Sequence record: OQ223305.1
DNA: 64,000 nt
Reading direction: 5' to 3' (one strand)
From: Escherichia phage EO1
Shown piece after piece: positions 26,606 to 33,032 of the stretch; position 1 is the first letter of the stretch, and each line of letters opens with the position of its first letter. Below the pieces are notes generated by a model. The model was not told the origin of the DNA, did no database searches, and saw nothing but the letters and a program-made list of their open reading frames with translations. The position numbers were made by a program, and so were the translations under genes.

Positions 26606-27262
26606 TTATTTAGCCCTTCCTAATATTCTGGCCGCCTGAGCACATATTGATTCAAGGCGGTCATTACTTATATGATCATTTCTATACCAGTACATAGTTA
26701 TCGTTCCAGCATAGATATTATCCAAATTAAAATATGGACAACTGTACATGTAGTTTATTTCGGGAGTAGGCTTTTTAGTTGGTAAAAAAGCAAATTTTGA
26801 GTTGGAATAATAATGACGTCCATTTAAATGAACTGTATATTCATCCATAGTTTTATCAACAGGATATCCTCCAAGTGATTTTTCACTTATTGTTGAAGGT
26901 AATTTTCCTTCATATGCTATAATATCAACAAAATAGTTTAAGTTTTTAGGGCGGAAAGAATACACCGCACTAAAGTCTGCCTCAGATGATATATGAACTA
27001 TCTGGAGTTGTTCCAGGGCGACAGATTCAAAGCGTGCATTTCTTTCCTTTTCAATAATTTCACTGTATGTTTCATACTTTGATTGCTTATAGTACTCAAA
27101 GAAACTATCTCCCCTATACCAAACAATCGCCATTATAAACAAAAGAATTACGACAGCTACCCGGGAAGCAAGAACATTCCCGGTAGCGTTATCTTTGAAC
27201 AAGCGATCTAGAACACCCAACAGAATATCAGAGGGCGAAAATGATATTCTAGGTACTGCCAT
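26606..27262 (-). CDS. t: holin T
   Basis: 218 aa; single N-terminal TM segment plus large periplasmic domain; adjacent to tail-fibre genes as in T4. Confidence 0.85.
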   Translation of the reverse strand: MAVPRISFSPSDILLGVLDRLFKDNATGNVLASRVAVVILLFIMAIVWYRGDSFFEYYKQSKYETYSEIIEKERNARFESVALEQLQIVHISSEADFSAVYSFRPKNLNYFVDIIAYEGKLPSTISEKSLGGYPVDKTMDEYTVHLNGRHYYSNSKFAFLPTKKPTPEINYMYSCPYFNLDNIYAGTITMYWYRNDHISNDRLESICAQAARILGRAK

Positions 27263-27280: not shown

Positions 27281-27288
27281 TATTTATA
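27281..27288 (-). promoter_or_regulatory. T4 late promoter (TATAAATA) for t
   Basis: minus strand reads CATATAAATATCC, then AAGGAGG RBS and t start. Confidence 0.6.
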
Positions 27289-27307
27289 TGCTGAGAGGTA
27301 TTACCAT

Positions 27308-28087
27308 TTAAATCCAGGAACCGTAGATCGTGCCTGTTGCACCCCATGATGGTGAAGAACCAAATACCGCTCTACCTGGAGCACCACCGCCGGATCTAGA
27401 TAAGTGATTACCCCATCCATCTCCACCCCGACCTCCAGCATCACCGCCATTGCCTCCGCCGAATTGGGAAGTGTAACCGGCACCGCCCGGGGCGTCATAA
27501 CTAGCATTACCACCCGGCCAATTAACGCCGCCTCCGCCGATGCCAAATGGTCTACCACCACCGCCACCTGCTGTAGCATTTGGCGCCCAGCTATTCTGTA
27601 ATGACACTGCACCACCACCACCGCCGCCTGATGCAATAACGCCATAGTTCCAAATACGAAGTCTTCCGCCGATATCATTTTGGATTACATCGCCGCCATT
27701 TGTGCCTGGGTTTCCGTTTACAGTACCGTTACCACCTCGTCCCCACATATGAACTCCACCATGAATATTCAAAGTAACATATTCATTTGGCGTATCGCCA
27801 TACATAAAGAATAATGGAACATCTTTACTATATGATACCAAATTTCCGGTGATATTAAACACTATAGGTGCACTACCTGCCTCAAAACATCTATCTCGGA
27901 ACCATTGACCATTGAAGTTATGGTCTGCTCCAAGCGTGTGAATAATTTCTCGTGAGCGACCTGCAAATTGACTCATCCAGCAAGGAACACCCAATCTTAA
28001 TTGACCAGCCGCTTGACTCATCCAGCGCTGTCCAGTTTCATTTGCGGCTGAACTTCCAATCCAACCAGGAACACTAACTACTGCCAT
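27308..28087 (-). CDS. 38: gp38 receptor-recognising adhesin, T2-type (glycine-rich motifs)
   Basis: 259 aa; Gly runs [37 protein letters not shown] separated by variable segments. Confidence 0.85.
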
Positions 28088-28102: not shown

Positions 28103-28117
28103 GGGGGCGTTGCCCCC
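28103..28117 (-). other. GC hairpin between genes 37 and 38
   Basis: GGGGGC-GTT-GCCCCC; on the minus strand followed by GGAG and gene 38 ATG. Confidence 0.4.
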
Positions 28118-28123
28118 TTGTTG

Positions 28124-31100
28124 TTAGAATTTAAAATATTTACTAATTTTTCGAGCAATTTTAGTAAAGAAAGGCGTTTTCAATTCTTTAATTTCCTCAC
28201 TCATTTCCTGAATAGCCTTAATTAAAAGAGCATTCACAGCAGAGTTAGAAATTGTCAGAACATCAGATCCATCAACTTCAACTTTAGATACAGCTTCCAG
28301 TAATTCCTTTTCAAGGTCCTGAGCAATAATACCAACTTCACGTTTAATAACACTACGGTCTTTAATAGACTTAACTTTATCGTAAGTATAAACTTTCAGA
28401 CGGCATACTTTTTCAAGTGCTCCGTTTTCTAACTCTTCTTTATTAATCTTAAGACGATCATCAGAACGAATATAAACATCGTTAAAGTTACCATTACCAG
28501 GACAGTAAAAAGTACCATCATGATGGAACTCGAATACAGCTTGAGGATGACCAGCCGCTGGCGAGTTCTCCGCAGATCCAACACGAATGATTGCTTGCCC
28601 CCAATTTTGAGGAACACGACGCATACCAAAATCTACGGCAGTTGTATATCCTTGATTGGTGATTAAACTTCTGCCTTTAATAATTGGATAATAGCTATCC
28701 GGTCCAACATAGCCATGATCGACGAATATCGGAGCTTCTAAGCCCCATTGGTCGTTCCAACCTCCAGATTGACTAGCAGTCCAACGTTCACCATGAACAT
28801 AGAATCGAACGTTATTGACATGAGTCATTTCGATGCCTTTTGGACTTAGCGCGATATCCCCTCCGTTTGTAATGTATATACCGCCTTGCGTAACGTAACT
28901 GTAAAAACCTAGACCATTGTTTGCGCCACCTTTACCAATATACCAATTATTGACCCCGGCCGTATCAGAACGAATAAATGATGAATCACTGGCCAAAGGA
29001 GGATTAAGAACTATTCCAGCAGCATCTTTATTAATCCAAAGAGCGCCGGTCATCGTATCGCCTTCTTTGGCAACACGAGTAGCTATTGCATCACGAATAT
29101 TTGTAGTGTCTCCCGCAGAAGTAAACGTTTTCCAAATATCCGAGAAAATATTACCATTGCGAGCAATAGTAGCTTCACCGCCGCCGACCTGAACGTTATT
29201 GGGGAAATTAACTGTACCATCAGCATTAAATCTTGATGTATGGCCCTGTGATCCATCTTCTTTCAGATGATGTAAAACAAATGTACCCGAATTAATTTCA
29301 GTACCTAAAGACCAAACAGCTTTACTGTTTAAAAACTTCTGTTTAACAATAGGATAATATTTACTTACTGCGTCATCATCGATTTCCTGGAAAATAGGAG
29401 CTGCTTGAACATATTGAATATCATAACCACCAGCGCCTGCGCCGTGACCAGTAAATTTAATATAGCCGTTTGCTGCGAACGTATTGTAACTTGATTGTAA
29501 ATCTGGAATAGTAACTTTACCGGTATCTAAAGCCATACTAAACGGGCGAAGTGGACCGATATCACCATGTTTACCTTCACCATAAGCAGTTGGAATAATA
29601 TGAAGACTACCTTCTGAACGTCTAAAAATGGCTCCATAATCTGCATTCCAAATGCGAAGTGCATTCACAGCCCCAGATGAAATTTCGCCTGTTGTGTGAA
29701 CTCCTCTATTTCCAGCAGTAACACCAGATGATTCAAATGAACCGTTAACGTTCATTTCTATTTCACCGGTAGTAAGTCTTTGAATATAGCTCATCCAGCT
29801 AGTTGCATCGGAAATTTCCATGACATTTTTGCGATTACCTTCGCTAGGATTAGTAAATGTATTACCCCACACAGAAATTGTCATGTTATCCACAGAACTA
29901 CTACCTGTTGTGTTACCTCTAAACATCAGTGTAGAAGCATTATTTCTACCATCGATATTAACAGAACCACCAATAACGTCAATATTGCCTGGAGTAACTA
30001 ACAAACCGCCGTGAGTATTAATGTTTGTAGTGCCCTTGCCGCGGAAATAATGATGATAGTTACCGCCTTGATAATATCCTAAAAGAGTCTGACCATCTCC
30101 AAACGCGTTATTATCATGATATGTAACAACAGTAGCAAGAGCATAATTTTCAGTTGGAGGAGTAGTTAAATCGGTTCCGTTAGTAGAATATCCAGCTACA
30201 AATTTTCTTAGGCTAGTTGTTTCGCTAGGACTAAATAAAAACGTTTTTGTTCCATTATTAACGCTAAAATAATATCCATCTTGATGCCATTTAAATCCAG
30301 TATCATTATCTCCTAAAGCAATACTAGATGGTCCTAATATTGAATAATCTTTATTACCAGGTGTTAAACCAATAGAAATTGAGTGACTTGATTTAATTCC
30401 GCCGCTCCAAGTAAATGACCAAAGATAGGTGTCAAGTCCATCACCTGCATACCAAGTTATTCCATCATTATCTTTAACTTCATGGAAAATACCAGAACCA
30501 ACGGCATTACGCATGACACGAAGATGATTAATAGCAGTAGTGCTTTCAGACAATGGAACATTGTCTGCCATCGAATAGATGTCATAATCACCCGTAGATT
30601 TATTATTAGTAATGACTTTGTTGGTCAGAATTTGTGGAGACGAAATAGATTTCCATGCTGATACTTCAGGTGAAGTAAATAGTCCACTGCCTGAAAATGC
30701 ATAAGTGCTTTCGCTACCAGCGGCGTAGTCTTGAACCCTGATATTAAGTACTTGTGTAGTTAAACCATCATTAGCCGGGGCATAAATGATTCCGCGTTCG
30801 CGACTATTGTTATCGAAAAAACGAACATGCGCTGTACCTGAACTTTTTGTAATAAGTTCTCCGCCTTCAGTCATAATCTGCCCGGCGGCAATAATATCGC
30901 GAGTTACTCGAGCAATACCAGTTAAATTAAAATTACCAGTCTGAGTGAAGACGCCATTTAAAGTATAATCGCCAGTTTGGTTATAATTGCCTGTATGAAT
31001 AACATTCCCGTCAATACTACCGCCTTTAGCAAAACCCAGATCAATAATATTTCCTTGGTCATCTTTAGTAAAAAGTACACGGTCTTTTAAGTTTATAGCC

Positions 31101-31186
31101 AATTCACCTTCGGCTAATACTGAAGCGGCAGGACGTGCTCCTGCAGTTTTGCTTCTTTTAAATTGTATTTGTTTTAAAGTAGCCAT
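28124..31186 (-). CDS. 37: long tail fibre distal subunit gp37 with C-terminal intramolecular-chaperone domain
   Basis: 1020 aa; Gly/Thr/Asn-rich fibre repeats; last ~113 aa carry SDDRLK...GIIAQDLEKELL...LLIKAIQEMSEEIKELK. Confidence 0.9.
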   Translation of the reverse strand: MATLKQIQFKRSKTAGARPAASVLAEGELAINLKDRVLFTKDDQGNIIDLGFAKGGSIDGNVIHTGNYNQTGDYTLNGVFTQTGNFNLTGIARVTRDIIAAGQIMTEGGELITKSSGTAHVRFFDNNSRERGIIYAPANDGLTTQVLNIRVQDYAAGSESTYAFSGSGLFTSPEVSAWKSISSPQILTNKVITNNKSTGDYDIYSMADNVPLSESTTAINHLRVMRNAVGSGIFHEVKDNDGITWYAGDGLDTYLWSFTWSGGIKSSHSISIGLTPGNKDYSILGPSSIALGDNDTGFKWHQDGYYFSVNNGTKTFLFSPSETTSLRKFVAGYSTNGTDLTTPPTENYALATVVTYHDNNAFGDGQTLLGYYQGGNYHHYFRGKGTTNINTHGGLLVTPGNIDVIGGSVNIDGRNNASTLMFRGNTTGSSSVDNMTISVWGNTFTNPSEGNRKNVMEISDATSWMSYIQRLTTGEIEMNVNGSFESSGVTAGNRGVHTTGEISSGAVNALRIWNADYGAIFRRSEGSLHIIPTAYGEGKHGDIGPLRPFSMALDTGKVTIPDLQSSYNTFAANGYIKFTGHGAGAGGYDIQYVQAAPIFQEIDDDAVSKYYPIVKQKFLNSKAVWSLGTEINSGTFVLHHLKEDGSQGHTSRFNADGTVNFPNNVQVGGGEATIARNGNIFSDIWKTFTSAGDTTNIRDAIATRVAKEGDTMTGALWINKDAAGIVLNPPLASDSSFIRSDTAGVNNWYIGKGGANNGLGFYSYVTQGGIYITNGGDIALSPKGIEMTHVNNVRFYVHGERWTASQSGGWNDQWGLEAPIFVDHGYVGPDSYYPIIKGRSLITNQGYTTAVDFGMRRVPQNWGQAIIRVGSAENSPAAGHPQAVFEFHHDGTFYCPGNGNFNDVYIRSDDRLKINKEELENGALEKVCRLKVYTYDKVKSIKDRSVIKREVGIIAQDLEKELLEAVSKVEVDGSDVLTISNSAVNALLIKAIQEMSEEIKELKTPFFTKIARKISKYFKF

Positions 31187-31874: not shown

Positions 31875-31882
31875 TATTTATA
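31875..31882 (-). promoter_or_regulatory. T4 late promoter (TATAAATA) for gene 36
   Basis: minus strand reads CTTTATAAATACT upstream of gene 36 start. Confidence 0.6.
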
Positions 31883-31913: not shown

Positions 31914-33032
31914 TTAAACTTCTCTAAATTCTTGTCCAAACACTTTACCAGTTTTAGACGATGCTTGTGTAGGAAGTACCATTATATCTGGAGGCGAAGC
32001 GGATTCACAGACATAATTAACGCGAATACCATTGACGCCAAATTCTGCAGGTTTTGAAATGCCGCCATTTCTTGATACTTCAGAAAAGCTTAAATTTCTC
32101 ATGCCTCCTTGACCTGCTTGGGCAGTTCTTTGTGCATATATCGTAAATCCTACTGCATTTTCTGGAATAACTACATAATCTTCCTTTAATTCCCATGACC
32201 CAGCTTGTCCAGTAAACTCAGCATGTGTTGAAGAAATATATCCATTCGATTCATCATAAAAACGGATAGATATATTTGTAGTTCCAAGCGCAAGTAAATC
32301 GGCATCAGCATATAGTTGTGCTTTAAGATAAAGAACATCGCCAGGAATTAAATTGTAGTCAGAAAGTTTACTTATCGCGGATGAAGTTGGTAGACGTGCA
32401 ATTTCGTTATTAGTTCCACCAACCGCTGACATAAATTGCTCAACGCTTTCGTATGTTCTTTTAGGAAATCCTGTAGCTCCAACGTCTTCTAAACTATCAA
32501 ATACAACATCTAAAATAGTTTGATAGTCATCTGTGCTTTTTCTATTACTTAGTTTAACATGTTCTAATGCAATAGCTCTTTTAGAAGAAGTGTAAAAAGC
32601 AGCATATGATACGTCAAATCTTGACAATATAGAATCAGATGGAAAAGCAGACGTTCCCGCGGCTCTTAGCCAAGATACTACCTCAGGAGGAAAATTAACC
32701 TTTCCGCTGGTTAATATAGCAACAAGTCTGTTGTTTGAAAAAGAATTCATGAAACTAACAAAAGCAGCTGATGTAGTATCATTTGAAGTCGAAAAAGCAT
32801 ATGACTTACTATCAACTAATGCTCCGGTGGAAGGGTCAAAAACTCTTAAATGAAGGCCTGCGTTAAATGTTTGACTTCCTACAGGATTATCCTGAAATTT
32901 AACATATGGTGGTCCTGCAGTAGAAAGCGGGCAAGAACCCGCTATGCTTATTTTATATCTTACTGAATTGCTTTCCGATAAAAATGGCGTTTGGACGTAT
33001 CCTTGTCCAAACTCTGCCATAAATTTTTCCAT
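31914..33032 (-). CDS. 35: long tail fibre hinge connector gp35
   Basis: 372 aa, same length as T4 gp35; between 34 and 36. Confidence 0.85.
   Translation of the reverse strand: MEKFMAEFGQGYVQTPFLSESNSVRYKISIAGSCPLSTAGPPYVKFQDNPVGSQTFNAGLHLRVFDPSTGALVDSKSYAFSTSNDTTSAAFVSFMNSFSNNRLVAILTSGKVNFPPEVVSWLRAAGTSAFPSDSILSRFDVSYAAFYTSSKRAIALEHVKLSNRKSTDDYQTILDVVFDSLEDVGATGFPKRTYESVEQFMSAVGGTNNEIARLPTSSAISKLSDYNLIPGDVLYLKAQLYADADLLALGTTNISIRFYDESNGYISSTHAEFTGQAGSWELKEDYVVIPENAVGFTIYAQRTAQAGQGGMRNLSFSEVSRNGGISKPAEFGVNGIRVNYVCESASPPDIMVLPTQASSKTGKVFGQEFREV

Follow-up and report, generated by a model that had tools for sequence, protein, structure and literature searches.

[quoted passage not shown] The question was addressed in a window of 64,000 nucleotides (the whole stretch of DNA that was analyzed; OQ223305.1). 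Outside the tail-fiber locus described below, the window shows 95-96% identity to genomes of the genus Tequatrovirus, for example that of ECO4. An earlier note, made from the letters of the sequence, had proposed a T2-type adhesin with glycine-rich motifs, and its claims are taken up where the corresponding results are given.

Gene 38: frame, family and predicted fold

The open reading frame of gene 38 occupies exactly positions 27308 to 28087 and runs from ATG to stop, encoding 259 aa; a ribosome-binding site (GGAG) lies 8 nt 5' of the start codon. The earlier note had placed the gene and its length correctly but had omitted the strand, which is the minus strand. The coordinates of the gene, its domains and its neighbors are collected in Table 1.

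Homologs of the product were found in 803 phage records. The best is gp38 of phage vB_EcoM_G2540 (MK327936; hereafter G2540), at 99.6% overall identity with a single amino acid difference (S5 here, G5 there), and an exact look-up in public assemblies found no record of the 259-aa sequence itself. At the codon level, gene 38 differs from that of G2540 by 30 synonymous changes and 1 non-synonymous change, and from that of Bas46 (ChristianSchoenbein) by 35 and 3, respectively. These ratios indicate strong purifying selection on the gp38 frame, the "hypervariable" loops included. Two further open frames overlap the glycine-rich part of the gene, at 27301-27678 (minus strand, 125 aa) and 27404-27601 (plus strand, 65 aa). 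They are most likely by-products of stop-poor, glycine-codon-rich sequence rather than genes, and the gp38 frame was preferred over them because the pattern of synonymous and non-synonymous changes supports it.

Family assignment was consistent across profile databases. The product matches Pfam GP38 (PF05268) over the complete profile (positions 1-218 of 218; 3.9e-83, 279 bits, cut-off 25) and Pfam Gp38_N (PF21721) likewise (positions 1-40 of 40; 1.5e-19, 70 bits, cut-off 25), as well as PHROG 2056, "tail fiber protein; host specificity" (8e-110); no NCBIfam model matches it. In the PDB, sequence matches were obtained to gp38 of the E. coli O157 phage PP01 (9V85, 3e-73) and of the Salmonella phage S16 (6F45_D, 2e-47).

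An AlphaFold2 model was built from an alignment of 86 gp38 homologs and is confident (pLDDT 90.5, pTM 0.83). When the model was compared with the PDB using Foldseek, the only significant hits were the same two proteins (E at most 1e-22, TM 0.79-0.91), and the next hit had E = 2.7. The model superimposes on the receptor-binding domain of PP01 gp38 with a TM score of 0.91 on the target and an rmsd of 1.8, and on S16 gp38 with a TM score of 0.84. The structure prediction that the earlier note had suggested as a check thus leads exclusively to solved gp38 adhesins, and its assignment of an adhesin-type gp38 is borne out by both Pfam families, the PHROG match and the matches in sequence and fold.

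The predicted structure has the three-domain organization of these adhesins: a helical attachment domain, a beta-helix and a polyglycine-II sandwich. Within the attachment domain, W9, W22 and W37 each stand directly before a predicted helix and are retained in 85, 85 and 72 of the 86 homologs, respectively; the docking role of such tryptophan prongs on the gp37 trimer tip comes from the S16 structure (PMC6851490). Further along the chain, beta-helix strands at aa 131-153 interrupt the glycine-rich region (aa 116-238). Residues 154-238 show no regular DSSP secondary structure although their pLDDT is high, and in the model this stretch is the counterpart of the polyglycine-II sandwich of S16 (PMC6851490), as judged by the fold match to 6F45 and 9V85.

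Table 1. Features of gene 38 and its surroundings in the window
Feature	Coordinates	Strand	Basis
Gene t (holin), conserved downstream neighbor of gene 38	26606..27262	-	Pfam Phage_holin_T 3.8e-117
T4-type late promoter consensus TATAAATA just before gene t	27281-27288	-	Exact match
Stop codon of gene 38	27308-27310	-	
Gene 38, probable receptor-recognizing tail-fiber tip adhesin	27308..28087	-	ORF, Pfam and PDB matches
Glycine-rich receptor-binding region, aa 116-238 (putative)	27374..27742	-	35% Gly; conserved motifs alternate with variable segments
Variable segment, aa 223-232	27392..27421	-	2.40 bits, with indels
Variable segments, aa 188-200 and aa 201-209 (GGAGYTSQF), with Q208	27461..27526	-	1.8-2.1 bits
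Variable segment, aa 160-173	27569..27610	-	Mean entropy 2.48 bits, with indels
Variable segment, aa 122-130 (TVNGNPGTN), first short Gly-rich excursion	27698..27724	-	1.95 bits; indels of 5 and 8 columns
Central beta-helix, first part, aa 47-115	27743..27949	-	AlphaFold2 strands pLDDT 88-96; 0.91 bits; aligns with S16 and PP01 beta-helix
N-terminal attachment domain, aa 1-46, three short helices	27950..28087	-	Gp38_N aa 1-42; AlphaFold2 helices 10-18, 23-29, 38-41
gp37 predicted intramolecular chaperone, aa 908-1020, 113 aa	28124..28465	-	Peptidase_S74 at aa 908-966
Gene 37, distal long-tail-fiber subunit, 1020 aa, predicted trimer carrying gp38	28124..31186	-	ORF; Pfam Peptidase_S74, Gp34_trimer, gp37_trimer
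T4-type late promoter consensus TATAAATA before gene 36	31875..31882	-	Exact match, between gene 35 stop and gene 36 start

Conserved glycine motifs and variable segments

Glycine accounts for 64 of the 259 residues (24.7%) and is unevenly distributed, rising from 11% over residues 1-110 to 35% over residues 111-259. It forms runs of six (154-159), five (174-178), four (184-187) and three residues (210-212 and 233-235), together with nine GG pairs. Of the window's 44 ORFs with 150 aa or more, gp38 is a clear outlier: its richest 149-aa stretch contains 35.6% glycine, the next ORF reaches 16.8% and the median is 7.4%. The grouping into runs was less distinctive. When the C-terminal 149 aa were shuffled, the number of runs of three or more glycines equaled or exceeded the real one in 35% of trials and that of runs of four or more in 12%, while shuffling of the whole protein gave p ~0.02 for runs of at least four. 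Because run grouping is unremarkable at fixed composition, the argument relies on local glycine content, the comparison among ORFs and conservation. It is the extreme local glycine content together with its conservation, not the lengths of the runs, that constitutes the real signal.

Conservation was scored as entropy in the 86-sequence alignment. The glycine motifs have entropies of 0.03-0.6 bits, with no variation at all at G116, G118, G119, G121, G131, G132, G156-158 and G175-178. Entropy is 1.8-2.5 bits in the intervening segments (aa 122-130, 160-173, 188-209 and 223-232), and all indels of more than two columns fall inside variable segments of residues 122-232. The description of poly-glycine islands separated by variable segments, given in the earlier note, therefore holds, both for the runs themselves and for their alternation with variable sequence across homologs. 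Its proposal that the variable segments determine specificity is likewise well supported by their high entropy and indels, and by published swaps and a single-residue change that switch the receptor in this very class of alleles.

The gp37 partner, transcription and the mosaic locus

Gene 38 belongs to the series 35-36-37-38-t, arranged head to tail on the minus strand, and the same order is found in T2, T4, RB51, G2540 and Bas46. The neighboring gp37 contains the sequence DVYIR^SDDRLKI at residues 903-914, where a predicted cut after R907 leaves a 113-aa tail. In the fPS phages the same cleavage site was deduced from an alignment with S16, in which the last 113 residues are released (PMC7917993). 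This putative chaperone region shows a weak match to 6F45_A. Similarity to T4 gp37 ends at residue 640 of the protein, and the T4 needle tip is considered absent because the similarity stops there. A stretch just upstream of the predicted docking end for gp38 (gp37 aa ~695-785; ~28830-29100, minus strand) resembles the C-terminal region of T7 gp17 (7BOZ, 4A0U, 4A0T; E 1.5e-4 to 1.3e-3). Elsewhere in the series, the proximal hinge connector gp35 (31914-33032, minus strand) carries a match to Pfam ILEI (interleukin-like EMT inducer) at aa 59-124 (1.2e-7, 32.6 bits, cut-off 27).

The copy of the late promoter consensus TATAAATA that precedes gene 36 (Table 1) probably starts the 36-37-38 transcript. 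The consensus is not enriched across the window (9 occurrences against 10.1 expected), so this assignment rests on its position and on established knowledge of T4 late promoters. A terminator-like hairpin (31910-31889) follows gene 35, and a sigma-70 promoter scan of the window returned 26 sites against 22.9 expected, an uninformative result. Between the gene 37 stop codon and the ribosome-binding site of gene 38 lies a perfect G/C hairpin, GGGGGCAACGCCCCC (GGGGGC-AAC-GCCCCC; 28103-28117, minus strand). No regulatory role is claimed for it: its folding z-score against shuffled sequences is only -2.1 and the scan for terminator-like structures did not list it.

In its DNA sequence the locus is a mosaic. 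Most of gene 37 resembles RB68/RB51 and Bas46, and identity to RB68 or Bas46 is 90-100% over the first two-thirds of the gene. Its last ~600 nt, together with the first ~140 nt of gene 38, are 94-100% identical to G2540 and 48-61% identical to RB68. RB68-like sequence (97-100%) returns at about codon 48 of gene 38 and continues across the holin gene. The breakpoint near codon 48 falls where the attachment domain gives way to the beta-helix. Judging by the comparisons with G2540 and RB68, the gp38 attachment domain may travel with the tip of gp37, apart from the receptor module. The pattern in Bas46 speaks against such joint movement: the gp38 N-terminus is shared with the window, the gp37 tip is not. 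A modular design of this kind was already described by Trojet et al. (PMC3157838), and the mosaic observed here fits it.

None of the searched records matches the locus at high identity over its full length; fPS-2 comes closest, with 93.3% over 8 kb. A tentative proposal, which we consider possible but rather doubtful, is that the fiber tip represents a combination absent from the searched records: an RB51/Bas46-like gp37 shaft, a G2540-like docking module made up of the gp37 tip, its chaperone domain and the gp38 attachment domain, and an RB51-like receptor module with the holin gene behind it, the docking and receptor modules being swapped as separate cassettes at a fixed junction. If so, the phage might have a host range unlike that of all its donors, and host-range engineering, with its plug-and-play design, would have a natural precedent in this locus.

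With this context, two readings other than an adhesin can be weighed. Gene 38 occupies the place of its T4 namesake, flanked by genes 37 and t, and several records of close homologs are still named "long tail fiber assembly chaperone" or "assembly catalyst", as would be expected if gp38 were a non-structural chaperone absent from the virion and the gp37 tip itself bound the receptor. Gene name and map position are, however, all that the protein has in common with T4 gp38 (NP_049864), a 183-aa assembly chaperone of unrelated sequence that is not a virion component. A blastp comparison of the two gave no meaningful alignment (best E = 2.1 over 14 aa), and T4 gp38 matches neither GP38 nor Gp38_N in Pfam. 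In addition, the protein in the window is 259 aa long and has a predicted fold like that of the solved adhesins, its gp37 has a predicted intramolecular chaperone of its own and lacks the T4 needle domain, and the NCBI record for T4 itself calls the "gp38" of the T2 subfamily unrelated. With neither sequence similarity nor a common Pfam family, the chaperone reading is effectively refuted, in agreement with the earlier note, which had already set the T4 protein aside.

A glycine-rich frame could also be a low-complexity or sequencing artifact, or a decaying gene. The composition is indeed odd, at 55% GC across the last 450 nt of gene 38 against 35% in the window, and spurious ORFs overlap it. 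Yet the frame is intact and has a ribosome-binding site, the structure prediction is confident, and the ratios of 30:1 and 35:3 reflect selection on the gp38 frame. Read errors are excluded as the origin because residues 118-259, the C-terminal 142 aa, are identical in the independently sequenced RB51, RB68 and G2540; the possibility raised in the earlier note, that the glycine islands might vanish after read correction, is thereby ruled out. The substitution pattern and the identity across genomes refute the artifact or decay reading.

Taken as a whole, the family, the fold, the conserved and variable pattern, the gene context, the type of gp37 partner, the identity to receptor-typed alleles and the purifying selection are best explained if gene 38 of the window encodes the common, adhesin-type gp38 of a Tequatrovirus that caps the long tail fiber (probability about 0.92). 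No evidence against the adhesin assignment was found in this analysis.

From these observations we infer a virion location, a docking mode, a cleavage of gp37 and OmpF binding for this adhesin, along the following lines. Gene 38 would be transcribed late, jointly with genes 36 and 37. The gp37 protein would trimerize with the help of its C-terminal chaperone domain, which would then cut itself off after DVYIR(907) and expose the docking face for gp38, so that one gp38 monomer could cap the tip of each long tail fiber. In residues 1-46 of gp38, W9, W22 and W37 would fit into hydrophobic pockets of the gp37 tip once it is exposed. [quoted passage not shown] Variable loops at its far end would bind an outer-membrane protein, most likely the porin OmpF, and gp38 would thereby make the first, reversible contact with the host. 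Docking, sandwich and receptor contact through distal loops are taken from the gp38 family (PMC3157838, PMC6851490).

The receptor and comparison with known gp38 proteins

The receptor-binding part of gp38 (aa 118-259) is 100% identical to that of RB51 and G2540 and 99.3% identical to that of Bas46, and it is because of this near-identity that OmpF can be named instead of five candidates. RB51 is OmpF-specific by RB-TnSeq, and its Q206 is required, Q206L being sufficient to switch the phage to OmpW (bioRxiv 10.64898/2026.04.02.716166). The receptor-binding domain in the window equals that of RB51 residue for residue, including the glutamine at the OmpF/OmpW switch position, which is Q208 here (codon CAA, 27464-27466, minus strand). 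Over the whole protein, identity is 98.8% to fPS-2, phiC120 and Bas46 and 96.9% to FL33. For Bas46, OmpF is listed as the primary receptor (BASEL supplementary table). FL31, FL33 and FL34 are OmpF-dependent, with reduced plating on deletion mutants (PMC12032242). Similarly, fPS-2 depends on OmpF in Yersinia pseudotuberculosis, where spontaneous ompF mutants isolated against fPS-90 are resistant (PMC7917993). Judged from these sequence identities, OmpF is the best-supported receptor of the gp38 in the window and very likely the correct one.

An adhesin whose receptor on the natural host is OmpW, FadL, Tsx, OmpA, OmpC or LPS instead of OmpF is improbable, though several facts point in that direction. 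One amino acid change (Q206L, counted as in RB51) shifts alleles of this class from OmpF to OmpW; since one substitution can change the porin, near-identity outside the receptor-binding domain is no guarantee. T2 gp38, a distant member of the family, uses FadL as well as OmpF. The phage fPS-2 also needs the LPS core (PMC7917993), and FL31, FL33 and FL34 also show a tolC effect (PMC12032242). Against these stand the identity to OmpF-specific RB51 in the receptor-binding part with glutamine at the switch site, the 99.3% identity to OmpF-typed Bas46 in the same part, and the typing of near-identical alleles as OmpF-dependent by four independent laboratories. The LPS core requirement in related phages has, moreover, been attributed to the short tail fibers. 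Host range depends also on OmpF loop variants, on LPS/O-antigen access and on the short tail fibers (gp12).

One discrepancy concerns RB68. The deposited gene 38 DNA of RB51 (FJ839693, 283-1056) and RB68 (KM607004, 1309-2082) is identical, while the RB68 stock of the preprint carries A617T (Q206L), which is said to cause its OmpW specificity (bioRxiv 10.64898/2026.04.02.716166). Either the GenBank record or the laboratory stock of RB68 differs.

In most T-even phages host range is determined mainly by gp38, so that correct identification of the gene gives the primary receptor from sequence, here OmpF, and resistance is predicted to arise from host mutations in ompF and ompR/envZ. It also flags Q208, at which one mutation is reported to retarget the allele to OmpW. 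These points are of use in annotation, cocktail design and host-range engineering. The gp38 family, its structure, its modular logic and even the receptor of this allele class are already published, and the analysis adds no new biology to them.

Comparison with T4 concerns the fiber tip as much as gp38: T4 binds its receptor through the needle tip of gp37, a structure that the gp37 of the window lacks. The label T2-type, used in the earlier note, fits the family but not the allele: identity to T2 gp38 (AP018813) is 51% overall, with 47% over aa 1-117 and 54% over aa 118-259. The two proteins share both Pfam families, the length class (262 aa in T2), the motif layout and the place between genes 37 and t, whereas T2 gp37 is 1341 aa long and that of the window 1020 aa. 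OmpF is among the T2 receptors.

Much closer are the proteins of G2540 and Bas46, which share the gene order and whose gene 38 differs mostly by synonymous changes, and that of RB51 (FJ839693), which shares the gene order and the complete receptor-binding part. [quoted passage not shown] Beyond these phages, S16 gp38 (6F45) has the same three-domain fold with a polyglycine-II sandwich at 45% identity, and PP01 gp38 (9V85) has the same fold at 63-64% identity to its receptor-binding domain. Both keep the tryptophan prongs and the glycine motifs but differ in the variable loops, and both recognize OmpC.
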